NCBI GenBank assembly: GCA_027366525.1 | Contig: DAHXKG010000005.1 | Span: 2,575-66,574 of the forward strand | Length of the DNA stretch: 64,000 nt | Direction of reading: 5' to 3' | Source of the DNA: a candidate division FCPU426 bacterium | GTDB lineage: Bacteria; Oederibacteriota; Muellerivitia; Muellerivitales; DAHXKG01 | Shown: positions 8,259-49,612 of the stretch, in pieces | How positions within the stretch are numbered: the stretch's first letter is position 1 | Layout: every line of letters begins with the position of its first letter | Notes under the pieces: generated by a model | Seen by the model: the letters and a program-made list of their open reading frames with translations, nothing else | Told to the model about the DNA's origin: nothing | The model's database searches: none | Position numbers and translations under genes: made by a program

Positions 8259-8300
8259 TTAGGCCAGACAGTCAACTGATATTTGAAGGGGGAATAGGTT

Positions 8301-10461: not shown

Positions 10462-11233
10462 AATTCAGAAGCAAATTTTTCTGGAACCTCGAACGATGGA
10501 AAATTATCAAAAACTCGTAGATCAATTTCACAACGATCCCCGTCGGGGTGTTCAAACGAGCTTGGAACGATTTAAACGCGAAATGGATTACCAGGATCGA
10601 GAAAAACATCGAATTCAAAAAATGCTTGAAATCGAAAAAACATTGATAGCGAAGGGAGTGCAGGGCATTGCCGGAATTGATGAAGCCGGTCGCGGACCCT
10701 GGGTGGGTCCGGTGGTTGCCGCCGCGGTTGTTCTGCCCGCGGTTTTCCATTGGGACGGACTCAACGATTCCAAAAAAGTTTCTCAAGCACGGCGGGAAGA
10801 TTTGTTTTTGAAAATTACATCTCAGGCTTTAGATTTTGGTGTGGGAAGTGCCAGTGCCGCTGAAATTGATCAAGTCAATATCTATCGAGCCACTCAAATC
10901 GCTATGGAGCGGGCCGTTCAAGCCATGCATCAGCCACCCCAATATTTATTAATTGATGCCATGAACATTCCCAATCTGGCGTGGATTCCTCAAAAAAACA
11001 TCATTCATGGGGATGCTTGCTCAGCCAGTATTGCGGCAGCCTCCATTGTAGCTAAAGTGACACGCGATCATTGGATGGAACAGTTGGATCTGGTTTATCC
11101 TCAATATGCATTTAAGCAACACAAGGGCTATGGAACTACTCGCCATTGGCAGGCCATACAAAAATATGGAATTTGTCCGGAACACCGGCGTTCATTTTCT
11201 CCCATTGCCCAGTGGAGTGGAATTGAAAATTAA
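10436..11233 (+). CDS. rnhB: ribonuclease HII (start uncertain; ~75-aa N-terminal extension)
   Basis: GIAGIDEAGRGPWVGPVVAAA catalytic motif and full RNase HII fold downstream. Annotated start overlaps the upstream gene by 26 nt; internal Met codons possible. Confidence 0.8.
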   Translation: MPSHRPLNEIQKQIFLEPRTMENYQKLVDQFHNDPRRGVQTSLERFKREMDYQDREKHRIQKMLEIEKTLIAKGVQGIAGIDEAGRGPWVGPVVAAAVVLPAVFHWDGLNDSKKVSQARREDLFLKITSQALDFGVGSASAAEIDQVNIYRATQIAMERAVQAMHQPPQYLLIDAMNIPNLAWIPQKNIIHGDACSASIAAASIVAKVTRDHWMEQLDLVYPQYAFKQHKGYGTTRHWQAIQKYGICPEHRRSFSPIAQWSGIEN

Positions 11234-29837: not shown

Positions 29838-29909
29838 TCATTTATATATAGTATATAGTAATGTTGGTTGACTAATGGTAATGTTATTTGTACTATAAGC
29901 GTCTTAAAT

Positions 29910-29987
29910 GGGGTTGTAGCTCAGCTTGGTTAGAGCGCCTGCCTGTCACGCAGGAGGTCGCGGGTTCGAGCCCCGTCAACCCCGCCA
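29910..29987 (+). tRNA. tRNA-Asp (anticodon GTC), with encoded CCA
   Basis: GGGGTTG acceptor stem pairs with CAACCCC. D-loop AGCTCAGCTTGGTTAGAGC. Anticodon stem CCTGC/GCAGG with loop CTGTCAC. T-arm GGGTTCGAGCCCC. Discriminator G + CCA. Confidence 0.9.
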
Positions 29988-30286
29988 TTACAAATTTAAG
30001 CTGTCCCCAGCAGTCTCTAAAGGTCTTTGCCTGTAAGGGTTTCGCAGCCCGGAGCAGGTAAAGGCCTTTTTTTGTTCCGGTGGTCAGCGGGGATCAAAGG
30101 GGGGAAAAGGGGGTTGGGAATGACATCATAAGACTCCTATAAGACACCGGGCCGATACCCCTGCAATCTCCTGCCATTTAGAGGCGACCTCCTCCGGTTG
30201 GGCTACCCGGTTTTGACCCCCTCCCCGGCCTCCTCCGGAATATGACACAAGCGCCATAGGCTTTTGGGGTATAAAGGGCCAGTGGT

Positions 30287-30350
30287 TGACAAAAGGCTAT
30301 ATTTGGATAAATATGTATATAGAAATGAATAACTATAGGCATATTTATCC
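30287..30350 (+). promoter_or_regulatory. candidate abiE promoter/operator: TTGACA -35 box and 11-bp perfect inverted repeat GGATAAATATG..CATATTTATCC ending 1 nt before the abiEi ATG
   Basis: TTGACA at 30287-30292. IR arms at 30305-30315 and 30340-30350 separated by 24 nt. AbiEi antitoxins are known to autoregulate via inverted repeats in their promoter. Confidence 0.45.
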
Positions 30351-30971
30351 ATGAATACGGCGACCAAAGCAAAAACCTATGAAAGGGCCATCAAGGTCTT
30401 CAAGACCCATGGAGGGCTCCTGTCCTCGACAGAGGCCATTCAGGCGGGCATCCATCCAAGGGACCTTTACGCCATGAGGGATGCCAAACTGCTCGAACAG
30501 ATGAGCCGGGGGCTTTACCGCCTTTCGGATATGCCTTCCCTCGAAAACCCAGACCTTGTGACGGTAGCCAAGCGAGTGCCAAAGGGGGTCCTTTGCCTGA
30601 TCTCGGCTCTTGCCCTTCATGAGCTGACCACCCAAATACCCCATGAGGTTTATGTGGCGCTCAAGATGGGGGCGAGAATCCACCGGCTGGAAAACCTGCC
30701 TCTTCGGATTTTTCATTTTTCCGGTAAGGCTTTTACGGAAGGGATTGAGGAACGAAAGGTGGATGGGGTGGCCTTCCGGGTTTATTCCAAGGAAAAAACC
30801 CTAGCAGATTGTTTCAAATATCGGAATGTCGTTGGGATGGATACGGCGCTGGAGGCCCTCCGTAATTATTGGAAGAGCCGGGGGAAGAATATGGATAAGC
30901 TTACCCATTTTTCGAAAATCTGCCGTGTCGAAAACGTCATGCGGCCTTATTTGGAGACCATTCAAGAATGA
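30351..30971 (+). CDS. abiEi: AbiEi-family antitoxin (type IV TA / abortive infection)
   Basis: 206 aa. N-terminal winged-HTH pattern (YERAIKVFKTHGGLLSSTEAIQAGIHPRDLYAMRDAKLLEQMSRGLYRL) typical of AbiEi. ATGA-overlapped with downstream DUF1814 NTase gene. GC-rich relative to flanks. Confidence 0.75.
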   Translation: MNTATKAKTYERAIKVFKTHGGLLSSTEAIQAGIHPRDLYAMRDAKLLEQMSRGLYRLSDMPSLENPDLVTVAKRVPKGVLCLISALALHELTTQIPHEVYVALKMGARIHRLENLPLRIFHFSGKAFTEGIEERKVDGVAFRVYSKEKTLADCFKYRNVVGMDTALEALRNYWKSRGKNMDKLTHFSKICRVENVMRPYLETIQE

Positions 30972-31894
30972 AAAAACCCATCGTCAATATGGCGGCCTCG
31001 GTCCACCAGCGGCTCCTGAACATGGCCCAAAAGACAAAGCGGCCTTTCAATGAGCTACTTCAGTATTACGCCATGGAGAGATTTCTCTATCGCCTTTCCA
31101 AGTCCAAATATTCGAATAGCTTCATCCTGAAAGGGGCCCTTCTGTTCAAAGCCTGGGAAGTAGCCGATTCCAGGGCCACCATAGACATCGATCTTCTCGG
31201 AAGGTTGAAGAATGAAACGAAACATATTGCCCAAGTCGTAAAGGAGATTTGTTCCCGTGATGATGATCATGATGATGGTCTTCGTTTTGACCCTGCCACG
31301 GTAAAGGCTTCAAGAATCGTGGAGGGCGCGGATTATCATGGCGTCAGGGTGAAGTTTCGCGGCTACTTGGGCAATGCTCAAATACCCATGCAGATCGACA
31401 TAGGATTTGGGGACCTCATAATGGCTGGACCTATTCCGTTGGTATATCCCACACTCTTGGATCTTCCGGCGCCCCATCTCAAAGGCTACAGGCCGGAAAA
31501 CACGATTGCCGAAAAATTCGAGACCATGTGCAAGAGGGGAACGGCCAATAGCCGAATGAAGGACTTTTTCGATATTTGGCTTTTGGCTAGAAGGTTTAAC
31601 TTTGATGGGACCAAGCTGTCCAGGGCCATTAAGGAAACCTTTGAGAACCGCCACATGGAAATCCCAATGGAGCCCCTAGCTTTGAGCACAGATTTTTCGC
31701 GGGACAAGACTAAAGCAACACAATGGAAAGCTTTCGTGAAAAAGAGCCGGTTACCCCATGCGCCTTCCAGCTTTACCCTGATAGTAAAGGTGCTAAGAAG
31801 TTTTTTGGGACCGATTGCAAAGACCCTGAACGTGAAGAAGAACTTCACTGGAAGGTGGAAAGCATCAGGCCCCTGGAAGGGTTTAAAGAAATGA
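30968..31894 (+). CDS. abiEii: AbiEii/AbiGii-family nucleotidyltransferase toxin (DUF1814)
   Basis: 308 aa. N-terminus ASVHQRLLNMAQKTKRPFNELLQYYAMERFLYRLSKSKYSNSFILKGALLFKAWEVADSRATIDIDLLGR matches the DUF1814 NTase signature (GS...DxD). Confidence 0.8.
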   Translation: MKKPIVNMAASVHQRLLNMAQKTKRPFNELLQYYAMERFLYRLSKSKYSNSFILKGALLFKAWEVADSRATIDIDLLGRLKNETKHIAQVVKEICSRDDDHDDGLRFDPATVKASRIVEGADYHGVRVKFRGYLGNAQIPMQIDIGFGDLIMAGPIPLVYPTLLDLPAPHLKGYRPENTIAEKFETMCKRGTANSRMKDFFDIWLLARRFNFDGTKLSRAIKETFENRHMEIPMEPLALSTDFSRDKTKATQWKAFVKKSRLPHAPSSFTLIVKVLRSFLGPIAKTLNVKKNFTGRWKASGPWKGLKK

Positions 31895-32200
31895 GAAAAT
31901 CAAAAGAGTTCAGCCAAAGCCTTAAAGAAGGTCTTAAGTTTGCTCAAGGCAAGAAGGCGAAAGTTAAGGTTGAAAGACTTCTCGTAAAGCGCAAACCCTC
32001 CAAGCTGAAAAAGTAAATCTCTGATTTTGCGGGGAAAGCCTTCCCCCTGGCCTCGGCTACCTTCGGTGATCCTCGGCACACCCCCTTCTTCTGGGGCTTT
32101 GCCCCAAGCCCTTTAAATCATCTAAACCCAATGTAGAAATGACTTAAAGTTTGAATCTTTTTGTAATTAAAAAAGTCCTTGAATTTATAGGAAATTAGTA

Positions 32201-32218
32201 ATACGCTAATCAGCGGAT
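32201..32218 (+). promoter_or_regulatory. 18-nt motif ATACGCTAATCAGCGGAT upstream of the XRE gene (copy 1 of 2)
   Basis: Identical 18-mer recurs at 33329-33346 upstream of the DUF3892-like gene. Near-palindromic core CGCTAATCAGCG. Confidence 0.45.
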
Positions 32219-32238
32219 TTATAGAATCCTAGAAATAG

Positions 32239-32559
32239 GTGATAAAAATGACATTTGGAGAATTTGTAGCCACTAAGCGGAAGGAAAGGAAACTTACCCA
32301 GAAGGATTTGGCGGCGAAGATTTTGAAAGAAGACGGCAATGCCATAACGGCCCAATATCTCAATGATATTGAGCACGATAGGCGAAATCCCCCGGCTGGC
32401 CAGTTGCTTGAACAGTTTGCGAAAATGTTAGATATCCCGGTGGATGCTTTGTACGTCTTGGCTGGCAAAATGCCAGATAATCTTTTGAAAAGTAAAGATG
32501 TTGATGTTCAAAAACTTGAAGTCGCCTTTCAAGCGTTTAGAAAAAAACTTAAGGAATAA
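32239..32559 (+). CDS. XRE-family (HTH_3) transcriptional regulator
   Basis: 106 aa. FGEFVATKRKERKLTQKDLAAKI...AITAQYLNDIEHDRRNP helix-turn-helix pattern. Confidence 0.75.
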   Translation: MIKMTFGEFVATKRKERKLTQKDLAAKILKEDGNAITAQYLNDIEHDRRNPPAGQLLEQFAKMLDIPVDALYVLAGKMPDNLLKSKDVDVQKLEVAFQAFRKKLKE

Positions 32560-32561
32560 TT

Positions 32562-33281
32562 TTGAAATACGTTCGCGACATTTCGGGAATCCTAAGAACC
32601 AGACCTCACTTGCAACCTGTCGAAATCGACAGGAAGTGCGAGCAAATCATCCGCGAATTTATGGAGCTTGAATGCGGTGGGTTTGTTGTGCCAATTCCGA
32701 CCAGTGCTTTGACGCGGTTGATTGAACGTGATGCAGATGACCTGGATTTGTACGCTGATCTTTCAAAGGACGGCCAGGGCATTGATGGTGTAACCGATTT
32801 TGTGAAAGACAAGCGGCCACGGGTTAGGATTTCAAAGGAGCTTTCGGAGGCAAAAAACGAACATCGCTTACGTACGACCTTGACCCACGAATATGGGCAT
32901 GTGAAATTTCATGCTCCGTTGGTAGCCGCCGAGGCTCTCGATCAAGACCTATTTGGTCCTGGTGCCACGAAAACCCCGCATCACTGTAACAGGGAGCGTA
33001 TTTATTCAAAAAACACTTCAAATTGGATGGAATGGCAAGCTGGTTATGTTTGCGGGTCACTATTGATGCCGTTGACGATTTTCAAGGAGTTCGTTTTGGA
33101 ATTTTTTAAACGTGAAAATACCCACGCCCCTCTGAAAATTTGTACCCCGCTGGCAGAAAAACTTTTGGCAGAAATCTCTCAAAAGTTTCATGTTTCCAGG
33201 GACGCTGCCAAAGTGCGGCTTTTCTATGTTGGAAATGGGTCTTATCTGACGGATGGGGATCCCCACCCAACCATGCTTTAA
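32562..33281 (+). CDS. ImmA/IrrE-family metallopeptidase
   Basis: 239 aa. HEYGHVKFH HExxH zinc motif in the ImmA/IrrE position immediately downstream of an XRE regulator (3-nt gap). Confidence 0.7.
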   Translation: MKYVRDISGILRTRPHLQPVEIDRKCEQIIREFMELECGGFVVPIPTSALTRLIERDADDLDLYADLSKDGQGIDGVTDFVKDKRPRVRISKELSEAKNEHRLRTTLTHEYGHVKFHAPLVAAEALDQDLFGPGATKTPHHCNRERIYSKNTSNWMEWQAGYVCGSLLMPLTIFKEFVLEFFKRENTHAPLKICTPLAEKLLAEISQKFHVSRDAAKVRLFYVGNGSYLTDGDPHPTML

Positions 33282-33328
33282 TCTCCAAAATAATCGGTTC
33301 AAAACATTGACAAGAACAACCTTTCGTG

Positions 33329-33346
33329 ATACGCTAATCAGCGGAT
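33329..33346 (+). promoter_or_regulatory. 18-nt motif ATACGCTAATCAGCGGAT (copy 2 of 2), upstream of DUF3892-like gene
   Basis: Exact repeat of 32201-32218. Preceded by TTGACA at 33306-33311. Confidence 0.45.
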
Positions 33347-33399
33347 ACTCAAATAAGCTTATTTTTGTATAAAAAAATCAGCAGTGAAAGGAAAAGACG

Positions 33400-33687
33400 A
33401 TGGCAGAGCGAGTGGAAGTAAGTTGTATCGACAAGCGGGACCGTCAGAATCCGCATGAACGGATTCAGGCCATTGGCGGTGTGCATGGTGGCCAGCGATG
33501 GAAGATGTCGGAAGAGAATGCAATCCAGAGCATTAAGGCTGGAAAATACGATTTTTACGTTACTCGAGGCGGTCGGACCGTGGACGTGATTATCGACACC
33601 CACAGCGGGCGTGAATATCTGAAAACGGAAAATGACGGGTATAGCCCGGACAACCTTCTCAGTTTAGACGCATGCAGGGTAAATTAA
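33400..33687 (+). CDS. DUF3892-like small protein
   Basis: 95 aa. C-terminal pattern FYVTRGGRTVDVIIDTHSGREYLKTENDGYSPDNLLSLDAC resembles the DUF3892 signature (fyv..gG..v.V....g.kYLrT.aDg...dNLlsLp.C) recalled from memory. Needs HMM confirmation. Confidence 0.5.
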   Translation: MAERVEVSCIDKRDRQNPHERIQAIGGVHGGQRWKMSEENAIQSIKAGKYDFYVTRGGRTVDVIIDTHSGREYLKTENDGYSPDNLLSLDACRVN

Positions 33688-33735
33688 TGGGGACGGCCTG
33701 TCGGTGACGGCGGGTCGTTTTTTCAAAAAGACATA

Positions 33736-33984
33736 ATGAGGTGCACAATGCTCGTTTACTGTACTAATTGCAAAAAAGAACATGCTGACCCAGGTATGAA
33801 CCTCCCGTGGTCATCCTGTCGGTTCTGCGGCGGAAACCTGGTTCGATCTGCAGGAGTTGGTCGTCTTGCCGGTGCTGGTGCAGGGGCGGCGCTTGGATCC
33901 CTTGGGGGACCTTTCGGCGCCGTTGTTGGTGGCGTCCTGGGATTTTTCCTTGGAAATACTGCAGAAAAAAACATCAAGAGGTGA
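33736..33984 (+). CDS. zinc-ribbon + glycine-zipper small membrane protein
   Basis: 82 aa. CTNC...CRFCGG zinc ribbon, then GAGAGAALGSLGGPFGAVVGGVLGFFLGN glycine-zipper TM helix. AGGAG-like RBS. Stop 4 nt before the next start. Confidence 0.6.
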   Translation: MRCTMLVYCTNCKKEHADPGMNLPWSSCRFCGGNLVRSAGVGRLAGAGAGAALGSLGGPFGAVVGGVLGFFLGNTAEKNIKR

Positions 33985-33988
33985 TGTA

Positions 33989-34579
33989 ATGGTACATAAG
34001 GTATTTTTTAGTTTTCATTATGAGCGGGATAACTGGCGTGCCGGACAGGTGCGTAATAGTGGAATCACCAAGTCCGACGTCGAATCCGCCGGGTTCATCG
34101 ATGCAGTTGAGTGGGAGTCCATTCAACGCGAAGGTGACAAAGCTATCGAATCGTGGATCGAGAAGCAGATGGAAGGGACGGCGGTTACGGTAGTCCTGAT
34201 TGGGGCTCAAACGGCCAATCGGCGCTGGGTCTTGCACGAGATTAAGCGGAGTGCAGAAAAAGGCAATGGATTGCTTGGCATCTATATCCACAACGTCAAG
34301 GACATGGAGGGTAAAAAGGACTCCCAAGGGAAAAACCCATTTACAGAATGCGGTATCGAGGATGTTCCCATCTATGACTGGGCTGAAGACAACGGATACG
34401 AAAATTTCGGGAAATGGGTTGAAGCGGCATATCAGAAAGCTCTTCCGAAGGCAGGAAAAGCCGTTGGTGCTGGTGCAGGTGCCGCTATCGGTGCACCCTT
34501 TGGGCTCCTCGGAGTCGTTATAGGGGCGGCGGTTGGGTACCTTTTTGGAAATGAAGTCGATAAAGAAAGTAAGGGATAA
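33989..34579 (+). CDS. ThsB-like TIR-like domain protein (DUF1863/MTH538 type) with C-terminal glycine-zipper TM helix
   Basis: 196 aa from ATG 33989 (AAGAGGTGA RBS). The ORF-track upstream extension to 33857 is frame read-through of the previous gene. KVFFSFHYERD...VRN...TAVTVVLIGAQTANRRWVLHEIKRSAEKGNGLLGIYIHNVKD...GKNPF...YDWAEDNGYENFGKWV parallels Bacillus cereus Thoeris ThsB (RVFFSFHY...TSVTCVLIGSQTFNRRWVRYEI...GIHIN..KD...GPNPFD...YDWVADDGYNKF) as recalled from memory. Tail GAGAGAAIGAPFGLLGVVIGAAVGYLFGN. Confidence 0.7.
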   Translation: MVHKVFFSFHYERDNWRAGQVRNSGITKSDVESAGFIDAVEWESIQREGDKAIESWIEKQMEGTAVTVVLIGAQTANRRWVLHEIKRSAEKGNGLLGIYIHNVKDMEGKKDSQGKNPFTECGIEDVPIYDWAEDNGYENFGKWVEAAYQKALPKAGKAVGAGAGAAIGAPFGLLGVVIGAAVGYLFGNEVDKESKG

Positions 34580-34583
34580 TTAA

Positions 34584-35009
34584 ATGGGAAAAAAATTTAA
34601 ACACCTAGAGTTTATCCAGGCAATTATCAACCGAATGGCCGGCAACTCTTTCTTAATCAAAGGTTGGTCGGTAACGGTTCTTTCCCTTGTTACTGCATTC
34701 GTGCTAAATGATGGCGACCCTCGGTTGGTTCCTGTGGCTTACTTTCTTGTTCTGATGTTCTGGTTCCTTGATGCCTACTACCTAAAAATCGAAAAGAACT
34801 ATCGGGAACTATACAAGGCTGTCTGCAAAACCGAGGAGAAGGCTATCGATTTCAACCTCGCTTCCAATGGCTACTCCAAAAAAGCGGGTAGCTATGGAGC
34901 CGTTCTATTCTCCACCACCCTGCTTTTGTTCTACGGGGCGTTGATTGTTTTTGTCGTCGTTGTTCATCTTATGACGGGAGTGTGTCATGGCACGTCGTGT
35001 ATTTTTTAG
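34584..35009 (+). CDS. small 3-TM membrane protein (candidate effector; possibly SLATT-like)
   Basis: 141 aa. TM segments [56 protein letters not shown]. 4-nt gap from upstream gene and 23-nt overlap with downstream gene. Confidence 0.55.
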   Translation: MGKKFKHLEFIQAIINRMAGNSFLIKGWSVTVLSLVTAFVLNDGDPRLVPVAYFLVLMFWFLDAYYLKIEKNYRELYKAVCKTEEKAIDFNLASNGYSKKAGSYGAVLFSTTLLLFYGALIVFVVVVHLMTGVCHGTSCIF

Positions 35010-35442
35010 TTTTGATTATGATCGGGACATTTGGCGGATTGGACAAATTCGAAATAGTGGTTTGACTAAACCGGACATTGAAACTGCTGGATTTGTTGAT
35101 TCTGCATCCTGGGAATCCGTCAAACGTCAGACCGATGAAGCAATCGCACGATGGATAAATAATCAGCTTAATGGAACTTCAGTTACTGTAATTCTTATTG
35201 AGGTGGAAACGGTTCAAAACAGGTGGGTAAAGTATGAAATAGACCAAAGTATTTTGAGGGGGAACGGATTGCTTGGAATTTATATCCACAATGTTAAGAG
35301 CGCTTTAACTGGGCAAACCGATTATCAAGGTAAAAATCCTTTCGATGCTTTTGTGCTCACTTCAACCAATTTACCCCTCTCTCGCTATTACTACACGTAT
35401 GACTGGGTTATGAATGACGGATACAACAATTTTCCTGCTTGA
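34987..35442 (+). CDS. second ThsB-like TIR-like domain protein (DUF1863/MTH538 type), soluble
   Basis: 151 aa. RVFFSFDYDRDIWRIGQIRNSGLTK...TSVTVILIEVETVQNRWVKYEIDQSILRGNGLLGIYIHNVK...GKNPFD...YDWVMNDGYNNF. Paralogous to 33989-34579 but lacks the TM tail. Confidence 0.7.
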   Translation: MARRVFFSFDYDRDIWRIGQIRNSGLTKPDIETAGFVDSASWESVKRQTDEAIARWINNQLNGTSVTVILIEVETVQNRWVKYEIDQSILRGNGLLGIYIHNVKSALTGQTDYQGKNPFDAFVLTSTNLPLSRYYYTYDWVMNDGYNNFPA

Positions 35443-35786
35443 GGGGAACTTGCGGCTCAACGAGCAGGTAAATAATAAATCGTCCCTTTAATAATTCCCC
35501 TAAGAAACATCCTGAAACTCATTTAGATGGTTTTCTTCATTTCCGAGCGGCCTTAGCCACCAGTGGATCATTGAAATCTTTCAAATTTCACAACGCCGGG
35601 TCTGTCAAGTGATGGGTTTATCGAGAAATATATATCGGTATGCGCCTCCGGGTCGCTCGGAGGAACCGTCTTTGATAGCTCGAATGATCGAACCGGCATG
35701 TCTGTATGGACGCTATGCCCCATATGTCAGGATAGATGTCGCTTTTAGAGATATACTTCTCACGGGGTCAAAAAGGAAAAGGACCG

Positions 35787-36242
35787 ATGGAACAGTTCAA
35801 ATATTCAGAAGAATTCAAAAAGACAGCCGTTCAAAAGTTGTTGAATCGAGGTTCTCGTTTAGCGGAAGAAATCAGCAAGGAGCCAGGGGTTGCTTTGAGT
35901 ACCTTGCACCGGTGGAAGACGGAGCTAGGCTACAAGGGAGAAATTAAAAGTACGAGTCCAAGGCCACAAGATAGAAATCCTGAAGAAATGCTGAGATTAT
36001 TGATTGAATTTGAAAAAACACCTGAAGAAAAGAGGGGTTAGTTTTTGCGCATGAAAGGTTTACACACGCAAGAGATCGAGAACTGGCGAAACCAAATCAA
36101 AATGGCTTTAGGTCCAGGTGGTAAGAGGGTCGTGGATCGCAATGAACAAGTTAAAAATCGACTCCGGATTAAGGAACTGGAGAGGGATTTCGTGCGCAAG
36201 GACAAAGCTTTGGCCGAGGCCACCGCGCTTTTGATTCTTTAA
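35787..36242 (+). pseudogene. IS3-family transposase OrfA, interrupted by in-frame stop at 36039-36041
   Basis: HTH N-terminus and leucine-zipper-like C-terminus (KELERDFVRKDKALAEATALL) lie in the same frame separated by TAG. Confidence 0.6.
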
Positions 36243-36370
36243 AAAAAGCCGAATTGATTTGGGGAATCGAGGAGAACGAGTGAGCGCTGCCGATAGGACT
36301 CAGACCCAAGAGTTGATCGACGAAGCGGTTCGGGGGGGCCCATCAAGACAAAGCGGCTCACTAACTGGGC

Positions 36371-37189
36371 GTGTCGGTGAGAACTTTACAACGTTGGAAA
36401 TTTCAACTGGAAAATGGGCGAAAAGGCCCCCAAACACCACCCTCCAATGCGCTGAGCTTACAAGAGCGCGCTCATGTGTTGTCAGTGGCCAATAGCGCGG
36501 AATTTGCGGATCTGTCGCCGTGGCAAATCGTGCCGCGTCTTGCCGATCGTGGAGAATATCTGGCAAGTGAATCAAGCTTTTATCGGATTCTGAAAGCTGC
36601 CAATTGTTTGGCTCCTAGGTCAAGATCCAAGCCCAAGCAGCGTCAAAAACCAGAGGCGCTGATAGCTGTCAGACCCAATCAGGTTTGGAGCTGGGATATT
36701 ACCTATTTGAAGACTCGAATCCAGGGAATGTTCTTTTATCTTTACTTGCCCATGGATATTTTTTCTCGAAAGATTGTTTATTGGGAAGTGCATGAAAGTG
36801 AAAGCGCTGAACTGGCCAGTGGAATGATGGCCAAGGCCTGTGAAGTGCAGACGATCGAACCTGGTCAAATCAAACTCCATTCGGATAATGGAGGCCCGAT
36901 GAAGGGGGCGACAATGCTGGCAACGCTTCAGCGTTTAGGGGTTGCACCGTCCTTTAGCCGCCCGAGTGTGTCAAACGACAATCCTTATTTAGAGTCGTTT
37001 TTCAAAACACTGAAGTATTGCCCGAGTTATCCGACAAATGGTTGTTTTGATAGTATCGAAGTGACACGGGAGTGGGTTGAAAAATTCGTTTATTGGTATA
37101 ACCACGTACATTTACACAGTGGCATTAACTGGGTGACACCCGATTCCCGTCACGAGAACCGTGATCAAGCCATCTTAAAAAAACCGTGA
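36371..37189 (+). pseudogene. IS3-family transposase OrfB (DDE integrase core), frameshifted at both ends
   Basis: rve core motifs present. N-terminal part lies in a different frame (36259-36495). C-terminal tail shifts frame after 37189. Confidence 0.6.
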
Positions 37190-37545
37190 AAAGGTTTACA
37201 AGACGGCCCAGAGCCAAAAGCCCAACCGATGGTCTCGATCAACGCGCGATTGGTCACGTCTAGGTGCCGTGGAATTAAATCCGGGTGGGAGTTCACAAAA
37301 AATTCAAAAAGAAGTTACTGAAGCTGCTTGAAAATTTAGGCGACATCTTTCTTGAAATTTTCGGGTAGCGTCCTATATGAACAAAGAAGATGTTGACAGA
37401 GCAATCAAGAACAGTAAAATTTTATATGGATATCTCTTCATTACTACGAAGCTGTGGGTTTAGAGTTTCGGTTACAAAAAACCAAAGTCACCCTGGAACG
37501 ATCTCTTAAGAGTTTATACTTGGAATACCTAGATCTTTATCGGAT

Positions 37546-37588
37546 TGCATGCAGGAGGTTATGGGTTCAAGCCTCGTCAATCCCGCCA
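37546..37588 (+). repeat. degenerate direct repeat of the 3' half of tRNA-Asp (candidate attR of integrated island)
   Basis: GCATGCAGGAGGTTATGGGTTCAAGCCTCGTCAATCCCGCCA vs tRNA 3' half CACGCAGGAGGTCGCGGGTTCGAGCCCCGTCAACCCCGCCA. No matching 5' half upstream. GC content drops back to ~38% beyond this point. Confidence 0.6.
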
Positions 37589-37776
37589 TTTTTTAGCATT
37601 TTTGGGTGTTACAGCTAGATTAGTTGACCCAATTTTATGATTACGACAATCAAGGAACTTTAAACAATTCTTCAGAAAATGACTTTAGAATAACAGAATA
37701 ATACCTATTTCCAGAAAGCATTTGTAAAACTTGACTATGAATTTAAAACCACTTGCAAAAAACAACAATACTTGAA

Positions 37777-40700
37777 TTATTGAAGAATAATAAGTTTAGT
37801 GATGAACCGACCGGATGAAGTATTCACGACTAAATAATAGAGTCCATTGGCTAAAGGTACATGACTTATATCCAAAGGCGTAATCCGAATGATCGACGCG
37901 CCACTTGGGAAAGAACCAAAATCTTGACTGAATATCTTTCGGAATGCGGTTGTGAATATCTGTATCGTTAAGGAATTAACAGACTGGGGTAAAGAAATTT
38001 GTACTTGAAGTGGACCATCACCAAGATATGGATTTGGAAATGGAAGTGCAGACAAATGCTGGATCACAGGTGTGGGGCTTAAGGCATTTTGGAGGATGGG
38101 AGTTGGACTTAAAATGGGTGTCGGTGTGCTGGTTGATGTAAATATGGGAGTCATTGTTTGCGTGGGTGATGTTGTTAAGGTGGGTGTGAAGGTATTTATT
38201 TTAGTAAATGTTGGAGTTGGAGTCAAAGTATAGGTTGGTGTGGAAGTAGTAGTCAAGGTTGGGCTCCATGTAGGAGTGGGTGATAAGGTCAAGGTTACAG
38301 TTGGTGTGGGGGTTGTTGTATCGGTGAATGTGGGCGTAAAGGTAGTCGTATCTGTGGGGGTTAAAGTCAAAGTGTCAGTAGGAAACGGAGTTGATGTTAA
38401 GGTAGGTGAAAATGTCGAGGTTAGGGTAGGGGTGGTTGTCCAAGTCGGTGTTGACGTTTGAGTTGGAGATGAAGTGATGGTTGGAGTTAACGTTGAAGTT
38501 ATTGTCCAAGTCGAGGTTGGGGTAGCTGTAAAAGTATTTGTGGGTGAAGAAGTCGGGGTTGAAGTAGGCGTGGAAGTGAGCGTGGGAGTATAGGTTAAGG
38601 TGGGGGTTGGAGTCTGAGTGGGAGACGGAGTGGATGTTTCGGTTGAAGTAAAAGTGGCCGTTGAAGTCGGCGTCATGGTAGAAGAAGGCGTAGTGGTAGG
38701 CGTGCACTGAATATTATCGTTGACAATTTCAATTCCAGTCACTTCCGCATTATCCTTGGTAGGAACTTCTAAGATATCAATGAGTTGATTGGTTACGGGA
38801 ACGACAAAACTTCGATTATAGGCGGCATATTGTCCAACTTCGGCATAAATATCTAAATTGGTAATGACAGTAACGCCGTTGATCATGACGCTAAAAATCC
38901 GATCATTGGAAGCCGTCCAATATTGCTCCACGAATCGAAGATTAACGGTATAGGTCCCATTGGTGGGAACGGTAAATTTATATTCAACTGGATTGCCGTA
39001 TCGTTCTGTTTGATAAATCGTTGGATTTTTGGTTCCGGAGATTGCATTGGTGATAGTGGCAGCTTGAGTATTGGTTCCTACATAGCCAAACCCACCCGTA
39101 GTATAAGCCTGATCGGGAGACCACGTTCGTCCGAGATTGTCGATATAACCAGTTGTTCCACCTAAACCACAATCAATTCGGATCATGGATTGAGCACAAG
39201 GATTTTCAGTGGGTGTAGGAGTGGGTGGAGGGGTTGGGGTGTTGGTGGGTGTAGGGGTGCACGTGTAGGGAGCACAAGGATTAGGAGCAGTATCATAAGC
39301 TTCTTTTACGGCCCATACGGTATTGGCACGCATATAATAATGTGCACGAACATTTTGAACACCTGAAGTCCAAGCTTCGGGTGTTCGAAACCAAAGTTGG
39401 GCGGTATTCCAAATGGTGTTATAAAGGCTATAGCCAATTTGAGTCGCTTGCGTATTCATGCCAAGTTGGATCATGCCAGCTACAACGCCCCAGGCGGTTC
39501 CCACCCAAGCTTCTTGTGTTTGTGAGGACGAGGTATCAATCGCACCTGCGGCGGTCATGACATTAACCACGCCGTCAGCTCCATTATCAAAAAGTTTATA
39601 GTTATTGTTATAAATCGTTTGAAAAGCACTGATGGCATCGGCGGTAGGAACAATGCTAGGGAGTCCGCAGGCTTCCGCATACCATTCGCCGCATAATTGA
39701 TCATCCATAATACGGGTATCGGCTGGTGGCGTATTCGTTGTACTGTAGTCAATATCATAATAGGTGTTGTTCCACAAGAGCGACTGATAACTGGCTTGTC
39801 CGGTATTAAACCAGCTGGTATAGGATGTGGCAGTGGTTGTATTCCCTTCGGCCGTTGCAATTTGTTCTGCCGCTTCACAGGCGGCGAGAAAGAGTCCACC
39901 ACAGTAAGCGGTATCGCCGGTGAGCGACATGTTGTCGTAGGTTTGATCAACTCCCGAGCTAATTGGAAGTCCGGTGGCATCACATTGACTATGGACTTTA
40001 TTCATAGCGACTTGAACAGCCGGCCAGCAATAATTAAGAAAAGCCGTGTCGGTTTTTCCTGTAATTTCCCAATCCCGGTAAACCATGAGGACAAATTTGG
40101 AATTCAAATCTTTCCAAGTTGTGGTATCGCGATAGGTATAAGCATTCCATTGAGTAAAGCAAGTATTGAGGTCACCCAAATCATGAGCGCAGGTTCCAAT
40201 AGCAGCCGGATAGAAACTTTGAGAGTTAATTAAGCTATTGCTAAATTCTTTTACACATTGTTTATCCAAATTAGGCCAAAGCATAATTAAGGGCCAAGAA
40301 CTATAAAATCGTACATCCGAGGTTTCATAGTAGGGATAAATATAACTTTCCAAATGAGCAAACATATCATCACTGGGATTGGTGTTGGTGGGTTGACCTG
40401 AAGCACCACCGGCTTCCCACATGGTTCCGCTGGTAAAAAGTTCATAGAGTTCATTGAATAAATCGGTTTTTAACCAATCCGGATAAAGTCCATTATTTAG
40501 AATTTGATTCTGCCAGGTTGTGATGGAGGTGTCCCAAGTGGGGTAGTTATTAAGCGCATCATTGGCAATGGCCCACGAATTGCGTCCAGTTTGTCCATAA
40601 TACCGAGTATATTCTCGGTACCATAAATCCCCGGTCCCGCCATCAGCGGCAGCAGGTTCCGCTAACGGAATATCCCAAGACAAAACGATGGGCACCACAA

Positions 40701-41568
40701 TGGATTGCCCAGCTGATAGAGTGGTGGTAAAGGCAATGCCCCCGATAGCATTATTCCCAACGGTATTGTTGAGCTGTCCGGTACTGATAAATTGACTTTG
40801 AAGAGTTTGAATTGTAGTCGCTGATTGGTATGTGATGGTTACCGAGGTACTGGATTGACTGGCTAAACAGAACTCACCTTGAGTTTGATCAGTGGCATTT
40901 CCCGTTCCAGTGCGTGTTAAGATCAGGCCCACGTTGTTATTGACTTGGGTAACGGCAGCTACGCCACCTCCAAAGGTATTGTCCCAAGTGAGCATAACGG
41001 ATACGGTAGTTGGCAGAGAGGTGGGATTGCTGATGGCCCATTTATAAATAGCAACCGGATAAGAGGAACGTTGATAATCATTGGGAATGATCGGACTAAA
41101 TTGTGTGACTGTGGCAGGACATGAAAAAAGATTGCCAGTGTAAGTAACCCATGCTTTGGGGAACAGAGCATAATAAGTGGCTTGACCTGTGCCTAGCGTA
41201 GCCCCATTAAGTTTTTCAGCTGTGGGAGTTCCTCCTTGAGGTTGTTCAAACAAATAAAAATCACAATTGGTATCAACGGTTTGATTATTACTTCCAATAT
41301 TTAATCGACCCAGATAAAAATCACCACTGTACATCCAAGTGATTGTGCCTGCTCCAAATCCACCGATGGGGGCTCCATCATCGTAACCACTGGAACCAAC
41401 ATCTCGACTCCAAGCTTGGGAGGGAATGACTTGAGCATGGAGGCGACTTGCGATTAATCCTGAAAGAATTAATAATAAAAAAATAATTTGAATACGAGCT
41501 GGAATTGAAAAAATTTTTTTTATTGTCATTATTTTAATTTTATCATAAAGCAGAAAATTCAAAGACAA
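37777..41568 (-). CDS. secreted glycoside hydrolase-like protein (GH116/GBA2-like (alpha/alpha)6 candidate) + malectin carbohydrate-binding domain + Thr/Pro linker + C-terminal sorting domain
   Basis: 1,263 aa. Signal peptide (IFLLLILSGLIASRLHAQ). Malectin signature (IRIDCGLGG...W..D..Y...IYQTERYG...YTVNLRFVEQ...RIFSVMINGVTVITNLDIYAEVG). ~210-aa TPT/STP linker. C-terminal ~90 aa similar to the C-terminal domains of neighbouring genes. GH family assignment is tentative. Confidence 0.6.
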   Translation of the reverse strand: MSLNFLLYDKIKIMTIKKIFSIPARIQIIFLLLILSGLIASRLHAQVIPSQAWSRDVGSSGYDDGAPIGGFGAGTITWMYSGDFYLGRLNIGSNNQTVDTNCDFYLFEQPQGGTPTAEKLNGATLGTGQATYYALFPKAWVTYTGNLFSCPATVTQFSPIIPNDYQRSSYPVAIYKWAISNPTSLPTTVSVMLTWDNTFGGGVAAVTQVNNNVGLILTRTGTGNATDQTQGEFCLASQSSTSVTITYQSATTIQTLQSQFISTGQLNNTVGNNAIGGIAFTTTLSAGQSIVVPIVLSWDIPLAEPAAADGGTGDLWYREYTRYYGQTGRNSWAIANDALNNYPTWDTSITTWQNQILNNGLYPDWLKTDLFNELYELFTSGTMWEAGGASGQPTNTNPSDDMFAHLESYIYPYYETSDVRFYSSWPLIMLWPNLDKQCVKEFSNSLINSQSFYPAAIGTCAHDLGDLNTCFTQWNAYTYRDTTTWKDLNSKFVLMVYRDWEITGKTDTAFLNYCWPAVQVAMNKVHSQCDATGLPISSGVDQTYDNMSLTGDTAYCGGLFLAACEAAEQIATAEGNTTTATSYTSWFNTGQASYQSLLWNNTYYDIDYSTTNTPPADTRIMDDQLCGEWYAEACGLPSIVPTADAISAFQTIYNNNYKLFDNGADGVVNVMTAAGAIDTSSSQTQEAWVGTAWGVVAGMIQLGMNTQATQIGYSLYNTIWNTAQLWFRTPEAWTSGVQNVRAHYYMRANTVWAVKEAYDTAPNPCAPYTCTPTPTNTPTPPPTPTPTENPCAQSMIRIDCGLGGTTGYIDNLGRTWSPDQAYTTGGFGYVGTNTQAATITNAISGTKNPTIYQTERYGNPVEYKFTVPTNGTYTVNLRFVEQYWTASNDRIFSVMINGVTVITNLDIYAEVGQYAAYNRSFVVPVTNQLIDILEVPTKDNAEVTGIEIVNDNIQCTPTTTPSSTMTPTSTATFTSTETSTPSPTQTPTPTLTYTPTLTSTPTSTPTSSPTNTFTATPTSTWTITSTLTPTITSSPTQTSTPTWTTTPTLTSTFSPTLTSTPFPTDTLTLTPTDTTTFTPTFTDTTTPTPTVTLTLSPTPTWSPTLTTTSTPTYTLTPTPTFTKINTFTPTLTTSPTQTMTPIFTSTSTPTPILSPTPILQNALSPTPVIQHLSALPFPNPYLGDGPLQVQISLPQSVNSLTIQIFTTAFRKIFSQDFGSFPSGASIIRITPLDISHVPLANGLYYLVVNTSSGRFITKLIILQ
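38075..38705. repeat. low-complexity Thr/Pro/Ser-codon tandem repeat (linker-coding) within 37777-41568
   Basis: Reiterated ACN-CCN codon units. Generates spurious ORFs on other frames (38240-38461, 38375-38707). Confidence 0.8.
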
Positions 41569-43122
41569 AATTGATTGAAGTGCTTTAACGATACACTAAC
41601 TTAAAATTAAAGTTGGATCAGTTTCAAAAAAAAATTTTTTGAAGTGGTCAGTTGTTCAAAATAGCAGGACGATAAAAATCAAATACTAATGAATGAAAAC
41701 GAAATCACAAAATAAAAGAAAACGAGTTCAAATAATTCATTTCAAAAATATTTTTCAGTACACGTTGAACTGGGTTTTAAAAAATCAAGTGACCAGATCC
41801 GTTCAAATGAGTACCGAAAATCAGAAAGGAATTGTTAAGGAAGTGTTGACTGAAATTTAATTCAAATATGAAATTTTGAATTAAATTTGGAGTTGGATCG
41901 TGGGTTCGGACGAGAGGATTTAATCCATTTTCAATTTATGTGAACAGGGCATGAAAATAACATGATAGGAAAATGAAGTTTCGTGATTCATTTTTAAAAA
42001 GTTGATCGGGTATGAAAAAGTGAATAATTAAGTGCAGGGAACGCATAGGAATTTATGACTTGCCGGCAGGGTTTTTTTGGTTTTTTAAACAAAGGACATC
42101 CAATACATTGATTCGTTTAGAGAAATGAGTTGTGTAAAAATCAAATTCAATTTAGAAATTTTGAACATAAGTTTGATAATAAAATCAAGGGACGAGAATT
42201 CTAAAATTAAAGTCATTGATCGTGTCTTTTTTTAAAAAATTGGACCTCTCCTGATTTGAAATTTCTGAACCCAGCGTTAAATCCGTTGTTACGCCGGGCG
42301 AGAGGATTTCCCGTGAGTTGTGACCTGAATGGGCAATGCAGTATTCGTGTAATATCCTTGCATAACTTCACTAGAATATTCGCTCGATTGGGAAAAGAGG
42401 AATCAACCCAGAGTGCCTGTATCAAGAAGGCTAGGAGTTGCAGATAGGACGTTTCATTCATAAAGGAGATCAAAATTTTGGAGGTTAAGCCAAATTTCAA
42501 ACTACCGTTCAGGGTAGGAAATCCTTCTAAAATTGATGAGTGGAATCATTGGGATGCGGGAATGGATCGAGAAATTTGATGATCGAAAAATTGTATCTTG
42601 GATGAATTTTTTTAAAAGAGGAATTAGTGGCGGGGTTGAGAGGCGTGAAGAACGGGGCCATAAAGTCAGGGGGCTTCATGAATACAATGCAAGAGTTTTT
42701 AAGGACGAATTTGATTGAACAGTTGGATAGAACTTTGTGTAACGATAAAATACTTTGATCCATAGAAAATTCAAAGATCTTATTCAGTGATGCGATGCAC
42801 GGATTCACTTCGATTTTAAAAATATCGCGGAAAGTTTTCAAAAAGAAAACCGGCAAGAAAAATTGCATTCATAAATCTTTTTGAGCACTCAAAAAAAGTC
42901 ACATGAGGTTAACGGTTTCCTTGGATTCAAGATCCACATGACGTGGTCAACGATTTCCTAATTTCACTAGTTCAGTTTATTCCAAAAACAGAGAACTATG
43001 ATAATCTTCATATTGCAGTCATTATTTTTAAAAATAAATGCTCAAAGGATGTACATATAAACACGCATAAATTTGAGCAATGAATGGATGAATTTATAGT
43101 TTGATTTTGAATTAAGGTTGCT

Positions 43123-46100: not shown

Positions 46101-46236
46101 CAATCCAGGTATGAATGCAGCAGTTTATAATGCGCAAGGACTGGCCAGCGGCTTGTATTTGGCAGTGGTTGATATTGTCGATAGTGAAGGTCATTTTATT
46201 GGAAGACAAGTTGTTAAGTTTGTGGTCATCCATTGA
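43123..46236 (+). CDS. secreted protein: Cys-rich N-terminal domain + TPT linker + DUF11-like domain + 3x FlgD-Ig-like domains (C-terminal sorting-type domain)
   Basis: 1,037 aa. Signal peptide. ~210-aa T-P-T linker. DUF11-like ([22 protein letters not shown]...[15 protein letters not shown]). Three repeats with [18 protein letters not shown] / [18 protein letters not shown] / [11 protein letters not shown] (FlgD Ig-like pattern). Confidence 0.65.
44311..44940. repeat. Thr/Pro-codon tandem repeat (linker-coding, ~24-nt periodicity TFTPTNTP)
   Basis: Repeated ACG CCC ACG / ACC CCG ACC units. Source of spurious antisense/alt-frame ORFs 44088-45038. Confidence 0.85.
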
Positions 46237-46416
46237 GGATGACGGCAGTCATCATTCATTTTGATTGGGTGACGCTGATAAATCCCAAAGATCAAACGGG
46301 TTAGAAACGATATTGAATTGCAGGGAAAAGTAAATTAAAATATTTTTCATCTTCAGAATTTTATTCCTATCAACCCTTAAATCCAACATCAGACTCTGAA
46401 TCAGGAGCTCAATTAG

Positions 46417-49400: not shown

Positions 49401-49509
49401 TAATGTCGCTGGTTTAGCTAGTGGATTGTATTTTGCAGTGGTCAGTCTGAAAGATGCTCAAGGAGATCAACTTGGCCGCCAGGTCGTAAAAGTGGTATTA
49501 CTCCATTAG
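46417..49509 (+). CDS. paralogous secreted protein: distinct N-terminal domain + TPT linker + DUF11-like + 3x FlgD-Ig-like domains
   Basis: 1,030 aa. Signal peptide. Same post-linker architecture and near-identical motifs ([21 protein letters not shown]-terminal [32 protein letters not shown]) as 43123-46236. Confidence 0.65.
47481..48210. repeat. Thr/Pro-codon tandem repeat (linker-coding)
   Basis: As above. Spurious ORFs 47388-47831(-), 47628-48224(+). Confidence 0.85.
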
Positions 49510-49612
49510 CCGTCATATTTAATTTTTCAAACTATGGTACAATTAACAGTTAAGGTTGTGTTTGGGAAATTTAAAACAACGTGGGATAACGAATAAGGGA
49601 TTTTTCTAAAGC

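Follow-up and report, generated by a model that had tools for sequence, protein, structure and literature searches.

A probable tRNA-Asp genomic island of phage-defense genes that has lost its integrase in an uncultured bacterium

The window analyzed here is a 64-kb stretch of DNA from a bacterium of candidate division FCPU426. In it, an intact tRNA-Asp gene is followed by an AbiE pair, an XRE/M78 pair, a cluster with two TIR proteins, and a broken IS3 element, and then by a displaced copy of the tRNA's own 3' part. The features are as follows.

29910-29987, plus strand: tRNA-Asp(GTC), intact, CCA encoded (ARAGORN; Rfam RF00005, 70.1 bits)
29947-29989, plus: attL copy of a 43-nt identity block, from the last anticodon-loop bases to CCA, plus TT
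29988-30150, plus: conserved, element-derived arm adjoining the tRNA, alignable across loci despite their differing cargo
30304-30351, plus: putative AbiEi operator, a 19-nt inverted repeat (89% complementary) immediately ahead of abiEi
30351-30971, plus: abiEi, antitoxin/regulator, 206 aa (Pfam AbiEi_4, 5.9e-10; PADLOC AbiEi, 2.4e-73, full length)
30968-31894, plus: abiEii, DUF1814 nucleotidyltransferase toxin, 308 aa (Pfam AbiEii, 3.9e-45; PADLOC, 9.3e-100)
32201-32218, plus: ATACGCTAATCAGCGGAT, an 18-nt repeat (first copy) that precedes the XRE gene and is a putative operator for XRE
32239-32559, plus: XRE-family HTH regulator (Pfam HTH_3, 8.3e-8; PADLOC HTH_VI, 1.4e-10, and capH, 2e-3); public gene calls start it at 32248
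32562-33281, plus: M78/ImmA-like metallopeptidase, 239 aa (Pfam Peptidase_M78, 2.1e-6; PADLOC capP, 3.4e-8)
33329-33346, plus: second copy of this repeat; a TTGACA lies upstream of it, and the start codon of DUF3892 follows after 54 nt
33400-33687, plus: DUF3892 protein, 95 aa (Pfam, 1.5e-16)
33736-33984, plus: small protein with a Cys-rich N terminus and a glycine-zipper C terminus (Pfam Gly-zipper_Omp, 3.5e-5, below the curated cutoff); 33748-33984 in the public call
33989-34579, plus: TIR1, a ThsB-like TIR protein with a C-terminal glycine-zipper tail, 196 aa (Pfam ThsB_TIR, 4.6e-26; PADLOC ThsB, 6.9e-62, and PDC-M50B, 3.5e-61)
34584-35009, plus: membrane protein, 141 aa (PADLOC PDC-M50A, 1.2e-44)
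34987-35442, plus: TIR2, ThsB-like, 151 aa (Pfam ThsB_TIR, 6.5e-22; PADLOC PDC-M50B, 3e-56)
35665-37415, plus: inactivated IS3-family element, ends imprecise, read in three frames (Pfam HTH_Tnp_1, rve, rve_3)
37548-37590, plus: displaced copy of the tRNA-Asp 3' part, 36/43 identical, read here as a decayed attR
37591-37776, no strand: AT-rich host flank (28.5% GC) that separates attR from the GH116 gene's 3' end
37777-41529, minus: GH116 gene

ARAGORN called the tRNA gene on the plus strand at the position given in an earlier note on this sequence, and the Rfam tRNA match agrees. A sigma-70-like promoter lies upstream (29868-29896), and the gene is identical at 78/78 positions to the tRNA-Asp of locus L089 and of 11 JGI metagenome loci. 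Its final 41 nt, together with TT, make up the 43-nt block that recurs downstream. The earlier note had placed this direct repeat at 37546-37588 with about nine mismatches, and over that span 34 of the 43 positions do agree; the best register, 29947-29989 versus 37548-37590, raises identity to 36/43. Because the next best match to the 43-mer in the window (ungapped, both strands) reaches just 26/43, the similarity is far above chance.

Base composition also sets the interval apart. The stretch 29988-37547 averages 46.6% GC versus 40.7% to its left and 41.3% to its right. While the repeat, the tRNA, the cargo, and the lack of an integrase described in the earlier note have all held up, the reported GC rise to about 55% has not, since 500-bp windows in the interval peak at 0.51-0.53. 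Likewise, the reported fall in GC after the repeat exists but begins at about 37250, some 300 bp before it, and genes of the right flank climb again to 0.45-0.48; raw GC alone therefore cannot delimit the island. That right-flank excess sits in codon position 2, i.e., in amino acid composition. Third codon positions separate the island cleanly from both flanks, with a mean GC3 of 0.49 in island genes versus 0.38 ± 0.04 in 32 flanking genes (Mann-Whitney p = 2.7e-5). Within the island, GC3 is uneven, at 0.60 in AbiEi, 0.58 in AbiEii, 0.43 in XRE, and 0.34 in TIR2.

The tRNA-Asp site hosts other integrated elements in relatives of this uncultured bacterium. The relatives keep the gene order mutS, a protein of ~1850 aa with Ig-like character, and tRNA-Asp (MutS about 62% identical), and their DNA differs from the first nucleotide past CCA despite an identical 78-nt tRNA. 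A tyrosine integrase lies beside the tRNA in L089, L092, L095, and L101, a large serine recombinase lies downstream of it in L093, and AbiE pairs stand behind the same arm as in the window in L094 and L105. L107, L108, and L109 have the 43-nt block itself a second time (42/43 identical), 6.56 kb past the tRNA, with the same start position in the tRNA and the same end as the repeat in the window. In these loci, the repeated block delimits a unit that lacks an integrase, and the neighboring unit in the tandem carries one; behind each copy of the block comes the same arm. For GH116 and MutS, identity to the nearest relatives is only about 58-63%, and their right flanks differ. No empty site was found, as every contig with the exact GH116 neighbor also bears the island and the databases searched contain no close relative. 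Several relatives may have AbiE at tRNA-Asp in part through ancient shared descent and not through independent integrations.

These comparisons bear on whether any integration took place. The 43-nt sequence might instead be left over from a duplicated or rearranged tRNA-Asp, with the intervening genes forming a native variable region, and the lack of both an integrase in the window and an empty site would fit such an origin. Yet the block starts and ends exactly as the att repeat of L107-L109 does, composition changes where the repeats lie, the relatives' DNA is replaced right after CCA, often by integrase-encoding sequence, and the fragment is in direct orientation relative to the tRNA, as integration requires. 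We consider an origin by tRNA duplication highly improbable.

All seven differences between attR and the attL copy are C-to-T or G-to-A, that is, GC-to-AT transitions. Over its 5' half, the tRNA matches that of relatives at 37/37 positions, whereas attR differs at 7/41, a split with a hypergeometric p of ~0.009 for a uniformly drifted native tRNA. Both observations favor the earlier note's view of the island as old and immobilized. Alternatively, attR may not have decayed at all, in which case the seven differences would be the host's original 3' half, the present tRNA a host/element hybrid, and the island perhaps young; GGTTATGGGTTCAAGCCTCGTCAATCCCGCCA would then be expected in the tRNA-Asp of an island-free relative. 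It is true that all seven differences are compatible with the cloverleaf (G-C to G-U, G-U to A-U, with the R57 and Y48 classes preserved), an outcome that strict criteria grant to only 1.7-2.7% of random seven-transition sets, and ARAGORN still calls the reconstructed hybrid of host 5' half and attR a tRNA-Asp. Moreover, recent exchange is suggested by 1,053 bp of the island that match another assembly with 100% identity. Under pairing-only criteria, however, the same test gives 29%, and neither JGI metagenomes nor viral contigs yielded an exact match to the predicted ancestral tRNA. In addition to the improbable confinement of changes to the 3' 41 nt, only 3/7 anticodon-loop positions left of the attR block match, and the IS3 element likewise bears multiple lesions. 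An undecayed attR thus appears unlikely, and we continue to read attR as decayed.

At the other end, attL comprises the tRNA together with the left arm of the island. This arm (~165 nt) can be aligned among the window, L094, L105, L097, L100, and the sequence that follows the internal att copy in L107. It holds a long hairpin with a T-run (about 30019-30075), kept in 6/6 sequences with two compensatory pairs and likely to act as terminator of the tRNA transcript. The arm also has direct repeats, three in number and phased: ATGACATC (30120), AAGACTCC (30130), and AAGACACC (30141). They may serve as arm-type sites for integrase or Xis. Sequence to the left of attR does not significantly resemble the L107 arm that corresponds to it.

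The first cargo behind the arm is the AbiE pair. Type IV toxin-antitoxin or abortive-infection pairs of the AbiEi/AbiEii kind also tend to stabilize the DNA that carries them. Like the AbiE system of Dy et al. (2014, PMC3985639), the genes in the window are bicistronic with overlapping stop and start (4 nt), match the models over their full length, have a promoter inverted repeat, and are carried on an integrated mobile element; unlike it, they come from an uncultured lineage, and their activity is putative. AbiEi represses its own promoter via inverted repeats (PMC3985639), and the arms of the repeat upstream of abiEi are conserved in L094. Homologs of abiEii, 63-77% identical, adjoin the same tRNA-Asp in L094 and L105. 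Across loci, AbiE GC3 stays at 0.52-0.69, whether host GC3 is 0.30-0.40 or 0.70-0.77. This independence from the host, along with the relatives' elements at the same tRNA and the block in L107-L109, supports the attL/attR reading of the earlier note.

The remaining cargo named there was also recovered with Pfam and PADLOC: the XRE HTH, M78/ImmA-like, and DUF3892 proteins were all matched, the TIR-like module consists of two ThsB_TIR proteins, and the IS3 remnant of HTH_Tnp_1 plus rve. The exact 18-nt repeat has just two matches in 64 kb at ≤2 mismatches, with 0 expected. Because this identical operator-like motif precedes both operons, the cluster of DUF3892, glycine-zipper protein, TIR1, membrane protein, and TIR2 is probably under XRE/M78 control. 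The island resembles Thoeris (ThsA/ThsB) in encoding two ThsB-type TIR proteins, but the cluster is not Thoeris because a ThsA-type effector is absent. The membrane protein and TIR2 match both components of PDC-M50, a PADLOC candidate system of which we found no mention in the literature searched, and they may represent that system here. Unlike either system, the island adds a glycine-zipper-tailed TIR, a small glycine-zipper protein, DUF3892, and the upstream XRE/M78 pair. Judged by these matches, both the AbiE pair and the TIR cluster would act in defense.

The IS3 remnant retains hallmarks of its family, namely an HTH orfA (beginning at 35787), an A7G -1 frameshift motif (36241-36248), a DDE rve orfB (core 36371-37189), and gapped terminal inverted repeats (35665-35742 and 37340-37415; score 46 versus a shuffle maximum of 37). 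Unlike functional members, the copy is broken by two stops (an in-frame TAG at 36039-36041 and TAA at 36362-36364) and at least two frame changes in the orfB N terminus (near 36277 and in the G-run 36332-36338), in keeping with the degeneracy claimed earlier. It is single-copy in the window. Since no target-site duplication is visible, neither its exact ends nor any link to integrase loss can be demonstrated. The integrase itself is gone: Pfam found none among the ORFs or in a six-frame scan of intergenic gaps at E ≤ 1, and tblastn with the relatives' integrase as query matched nothing in the 64 kb.

The island is a mosaic, as the left arm and AbiE recur at the site and a 1,053-bp stretch is shared with L086, a contig of another assembly. 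That stretch (34578-35630, 0/1053 mismatches) covers the membrane protein and TIR2 and extends to the edge of the IS; on its left, L086 and the window differ. Such patterns raise the possibility of a stepwise history in which the arm and AbiE are old residents, while XRE/M78-DUF3892-TIR and membrane protein-TIR2-IS3 were added by IS-mediated or homologous exchange. Relatives share only the arm and AbiE with the window (genes past abiEii differ in L094, L103, and L105), the uneven GC3 would fit, and DUF3892 has an 87% nucleotide-identical copy in an unrelated defense cluster, L087, with DruA, SMODS, and SLATT neighbors, directly upstream of a weak TIR-like protein. Nevertheless, no internal att remnant is detectable within the island, and an assembly chimera could account for the L086 junction, which has poly-G and poly-C runs of 17 nt. 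We find this history possible, if somewhat doubtful; it would refine the main explanation and not replace it.

Our main explanation, to which we assign a probability of roughly 0.85, is that about 29988-37590 was acquired horizontally at tRNA-Asp via a tyrosine integrase that was later lost, with subsequent decay of attR. It would essentially be an ordinary genomic island of phage-defense genes. The element may have entered by site-specific recombination in the anticodon-loop region, bringing its own tRNA 3' part followed by the terminator hairpin and arm sites. Its copy would have restored a functional tRNA (attL) and moved the 3' part that the host had carried before to attR, 7.6 kb downstream. 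The integrase would have been lost later, plausibly at the attR-proximal end, where the dead IS3 sits, and attR would have decayed through the host's AT-biased mutation, so that the island could no longer excise. The proposed outcome is a fixed two-part defense island, with an AbiE pair and an XRE/M78-governed DUF3892/TIR cluster.

Williams reportedly distinguished, in 2002, sublocation classes of attachment sites in tRNA genes. The anticodon-centered class accounts for 2083/3919 Islander islands (Hudson, Lau & Williams 2015, PMC4383910). Like these, the island in the window has an intact tRNA at one end and a displaced, directly oriented 3' fragment at the other, an identity block from the anticodon loop (class A) to CCA, element sequence that regenerates the tRNA, and compositionally foreign content. 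Unlike them, it has a tRNA fragment that is only 84% identical and no integrase gene, for which reason the Islander filters would reject it. It also resembles a remnant of the cis-mobilizable-element (CIME) type, and its descent would be from an ICE or IME. Pavlovic is said to have described CIMEs and tandem accretion in ICESt1-related elements in 2004. Both are known from that group (reviewed in PMC5704250), and the island, like CIMEs, is a unit between att sites that has neither integration nor transfer genes. It differs from them in its decayed attR and in having no adjacent partner element, and cis-mobilization is therefore no longer plausible. The accretion itself has a counterpart in L107-L109, where such a unit and one that carries an integrase lie in tandem at this tRNA.

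Our results support the interpretation of the DNA 3' of tRNA-Asp as a decayed, integrase-less, tRNA-linked defense island, of a well-known kind, at a lineage-wide integration hotspot. The tRNA-Asp(GTC) gene at 29910-29987, which is the sole tRNA that ARAGORN finds in the window, is intact (70 bits with Rfam) and lies at one island boundary; Rfam gave no other match in the island. A 43-nt block at 29947-29989, which runs from the final three bases of the anticodon loop to CCA and on into TT, is repeated at 37548-37590 with 36/43 identity, as found with both a repeat finder and a direct scan. An earlier note had counted about nine mismatches, and over its own coordinates the identity is indeed 34/43. 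The runner-up ungapped match to the 43-mer was 26/43 (128 kb, both strands), so that the repeat is better than chance. Furthermore, the distal fragment is a cognate 3' tRNA part in the same orientation as tRNA-Asp, which is what Islander looks for, and the start of the block at the anticodon loop is a known crossover sublocation (class A as defined in PMC4383910). Anticodon-centered attachment sites are the commonest class in Islander (PMC4383910). In L107, a relative with a tandem array at the same tRNA, the block takes in the entire anticodon loop, CTGTCAC.

The island accounts for the compositional break in the window. The rise in GC that the earlier note described is real, but its size, given as about 55%, was overstated: the interval averages 46.6% versus about 41% on both sides, with 500-bp peaks of 0.51-0.53. 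The drop begins some 300 bp ahead of the distal repeat. Genes of the right flank (37777-52357), which encode a GH116-malectin protein, two proteins of about 1030 amino acids, and a GH5 cellulase, have 0.44-0.47 GC overall. Their excess is in codon position 2 (GC2, 0.50-0.56) while GC3 is host-like (0.36-0.45), and thus codon-position analysis resolves the ambiguity of raw GC. By that measure, island genes have a mean GC3 of 0.49 (up to 0.60) versus 0.38 in 32 flanking genes (Mann-Whitney p=2.7e-5). The host itself is strongly AT-shifted within its clade, with about 41% GC (GC3, ~0.38) versus 50-58% (GC3, 0.63-0.77) in its nearest relatives (L089, L097, L103, and L105; MutS ~62% identical, synteny conserved).

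The distal repeat, attR, could have acquired its differences in two ways. Each of the seven is a C-to-T or G-to-A change in the distal copy, and none disturbs the cloverleaf; ARAGORN still recognizes tRNA-Asp when the host 5' half is joined to attR, which could mean that the differences pre-date integration and reflect a pre-existing host variant. Random sets of seven transitions were compatible with the cloverleaf in 2-3% of cases under strict criteria and in 29% when only pairing was considered. As evidence for a pre-existing variant, this structure-preserving test was ambiguous, and we rejected it given the identical tRNA of relatives and the unchanged 5' half. The tRNA of relatives is exactly that of the window today, and the host-derived 5' half matches theirs at 37/37 positions, whereas the displaced 3' part differs at 7/41 (hypergeometric p ~0.009). 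In addition, the ancestral tRNA predicted from the host 5' half and the attR 3' half had 0 matches in JGI metagenomes; searches of IMG/VR for both tRNA 3' halves likewise gave 0 matches. The AT shift of the host (41% GC versus 50-58% in relatives) fits one-way GC-to-AT decay of a nonfunctional remnant. On the strength of the relatives' identical tRNA, the split between 5' and 3' parts, the absent ancestral tRNA, and the host AT shift, we favor decay of attR after integration, in line with the decayed repeat proposed earlier.

The cargo consists of the following genes.

Defense and regulatory genes of the island
30351-31894: abiEi and abiEii, an overlapping bicistron with a 4-nt overlap at 30968-30971 (Pfam and PADLOC)
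32239-33281: XRE HTH gene and M78/ImmA-like peptidase gene (Pfam and PADLOC)
33400-33687: DUF3892 gene (Pfam)
Between the DUF3892 gene and the first TIR gene: gene for a small glycine-zipper protein (Pfam/PADLOC survey)
33989-34579: gene for a ThsB-type TIR protein with a glycine-zipper tail (Pfam and PADLOC)
34584-35442: overlapping genes for a membrane protein and a second ThsB-type TIR protein (PADLOC; PDC-M50A, 1.2e-44, and PDC-M50B, 3e-56)

As in the known type IV toxin-antitoxin and abortive infection system, the AbiE pair has an AbiEi with a wHTH and a C-terminal domain and an AbiEii with a DUF1814 nucleotidyltransferase domain. A 19-nt inverted repeat at 30304-30351, just 5' of abiEi and also found in L094, a relative with AbiE at the same tRNA, is a putative operator (cf. 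PMC3985639). AbiE systems abort phage infection and stabilize mobile DNA (PMC3985639), a dual role that would favor retention. The AbiE and TIR genes are full length, unlike attR and the insertion sequence, and the window AbiE is a candidate toxin-antitoxin or phage resistance system.

The TIR genes resemble two described or proposed systems. PDC-M50, a candidate system in PADLOC, has a membrane component (A) and a TIR component (B), and the island encodes the two side by side; a literature search for PDC-M50 gave no paper. The two ThsB_TIR proteins recall Thoeris, but a ThsA effector domain (SIR2, or TM/Macro with SLOG) was absent from all island ORFs by Pfam and PADLOC, which rules out Thoeris as the identity of the cluster. 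The XRE/M78 pair 5' of the TIR operon has weak PADLOC matches to capH (2e-3) and capP (3.4e-8). An exact 18-nt repeat, ATACGCTAATCAGCGGAT (core CGCT-N4-AGCG), occurs at 32201-32218, just 5' of the XRE/M78 operon, and at 33329-33346, between a TTGACA and the DUF3892 start; these are the only two copies in 64 kb, with 0 expected. The repeat looks like a shared operator that would tie the TIR cluster to the XRE regulator, and its position ahead of both operons fits, but does not prove, regulation of the CapH/CapP type. Taken together, AbiE and the TIR/PDC-M50-like cluster with its candidate operator provide a well-delimited set of defense genes for anti-phage testing.

Parts of this cluster recur elsewhere. 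The DUF3892 gene is 87% identical at the nucleotide level in an unrelated defense cluster (L087, 6545-7586), where it directly precedes a gene for a protein with a weak ThsB-like TIR match, among neighbors that include DruA, DUF87, SMODS/AGS_C, and SLATT. The pairing of DUF3892 and TIR may be recurrent; the L087 protein had no BLASTP similarity to the first TIR protein and only a weak match to the ThsB HMM. A second locus, L086, on a contig from a different assembly (9944-11082 of JAJYYS010000001.1, GCA_021800745.1, compared with window 34578-35717), has 0/1053 mismatches to the window over 34578-35630, which covers the membrane protein and second TIR genes up to the IS3 edge, and differs in its left flank. 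Three origins are conceivable for this match: the segment may exist twice in the genome, it may have been transferred very recently, or the assembly may be chimeric there. The L086 copy adjoins cd1 nitrite reductase genes with host-like GC3 (0.36-0.47), and its junction has a 17-nt poly-G run and a poly-C run.

The earlier note also described the IS3 element as degenerate and the integrase as missing, and both descriptions stand. The IS3-family element has orfA/orfB, a DDE rve domain, and a retained A7G -1 frameshift motif, and it is dead: orfA has an in-frame TAG (36039), the beginning of orfB has a TAA (36362) and two or more frame changes, the terminal inverted repeats contain gaps, and a target-site duplication is lacking. 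Neither Phage_integrase nor another recombinase was found in island ORFs, in six-frame Pfam translations of the gaps (E<=1), or by tblastn of the whole window with a relative's integrase. Islander islands carry an integrase gene inside, whereas this one is without.

We propose that tyrosine recombination inserted a member of the class A family of elements into the anticodon-loop region of tRNA-Asp. The element's own tRNA 3' copy and terminator would have rebuilt the gene and displaced the native 3' part to 37548-37590. The integrase, which sits distal to the tRNA in the family member L107, would have been lost later, possibly in connection with the IS3 element now at that end, an insertion sequence without target-site duplication. 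Subsequently, attR and the insertion sequence would have decayed while the AbiE and TIR genes were kept at full length.

Relatives place this event in a wider setting. The databases contain no close relative of the organism: identity is 58% for the next GH116 protein and 59-63% for the nearest MutS clade. A MutS scan of genome contigs gave, among the matches listed, identities of 50% or less and no useful relatives. Every contig with an exact GH116 is the same species and has the island, so that no same-species empty site can be shown. At the site, more distant relatives differ in content, and none has the right flank of the window. Nevertheless, the order mutS, Ig-like protein of about 1850 amino acids, and tRNA-Asp is kept in the MutS clade (L089, L097, L105, and L107), and L089 has an identical 78-nt tRNA, as do 11 JGI loci that were retrieved by exact sequence. 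From the first base past CCA, the sequences diverge into several classes. Four loci (L089, L092, L095, and L101) have a tyrosine integrase directly beside the tRNA (mutually 90-100% identical), one (L093) has a large serine recombinase 3' of it, and two (L096 and L098) have apparently host-like genes with uniform GC. Together with a repeat beyond chance and foreign GC3, the integrases at the same tRNA uphold the attL/attR island interpretation. The tRNA-Asp 3' of the giant Ig-like protein gene is thus a hotspot at which elements have integrated repeatedly in a poorly sampled lineage.

One class, class A, is defined by an arm directly 3' of the tRNA (29988-30150 in the window) and is common to the window, L094, L105, L097, L100, and L107. 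The arm has a 16-bp hairpin with a T-run, a structure that 6/6 sequences retain, two compensatory pairs included, and then three direct repeats, A(T/A)GAC(A/T)(T/C)C, 10-11 bp apart (30120-30148 in the window), which are possible arm-type sites for integrase or Xis. Past the arm, L094 and L105 encode AbiEi/AbiEii with 63-77% identity to the window pair. Across all hosts, AbiE has a GC3 of 0.52-0.69, whereas the hosts themselves range from 0.30-0.40 (window) to 0.70-0.77 (L103 and L105). AbiE is therefore compositionally foreign in both directions, which argues for horizontal spread over inheritance. We regard the island as a mosaic, in which only the arm and AbiE are common to relatives; DUF3892 recurs in L087, and 34578-35630 in L086 (with a possibly chimeric junction). 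By itself, it is a textbook tRNA-linked remnant whose value is local.

The most informative locus is the array in L107, also seen in L108 and L109. The 43-nt block occurs again 6.56 kb 3' of the tRNA (42/43), and each copy is followed by the class A arm. The first unit is without an integrase; the second has one of the tyrosine type, which shares 54% identity with the L089 integrase. This arrangement is a tandem accretion in which att sites enclose a unit that has no integrase, a situation described for CIMEs (PMC5704250), and it offers a clean natural case of such units persisting. Within L107 9649-20465, the opening gene of each unit, located past the att copy and arm, is FliG_C-like (154/155 amino acids); the first unit also encodes a 1486-aa autotransporter, and the second an AAA_14/DUF4143 ATPase and the tyrosine integrase, split over two ORFs. 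[quoted passage not shown] The similarity score of the DNA left of attR to the equivalent L107 arm was not above that of shuffles. By analogy with the L107-L109 array, the island may descend from an ICE or IME and may once have been mobilizable in cis after accretion.

A broader reading is that the ~165-nt arm (tRNA 3' copy, terminator hairpin, and three repeats in helical phase), with AbiE usually behind it, is the minimal cis-acting docking module of small integrase-less cassettes that hitchhike on integrase-bearing neighbors via tandem accretion. The hotspot would then be a swap-shop for defense genes, including an XRE/M78-controlled DUF3892-TIR-membrane-TIR system without a ThsA-type effector. 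We consider this unlikely, at roughly one chance in five. If true, the tRNA-Asp site of this lineage exchanges defense genes among cassettes that have no integrase.

AbiE and Rv2179c-like loci in L110-L113 are not beside tRNA-Asp, and AbiE thus moves by other routes as well. Variable genes also gather on the 5' side of the tRNA, given that L105 has a HepT/MNT toxin-antitoxin pair (7985-8616) between the giant Ig-like protein gene and tRNA-Asp. On the right flank of the window, both ~1030-aa proteins have weak matches to FlgD_ig and to C-terminal sorting domains of the Por_Secre_tail/CHU_C type, most of them under Pfam curated cutoffs, and a strongly G-skewed, repeat-rich stretch (38096-38499) lies inside the C-terminal part of the GH116 gene.
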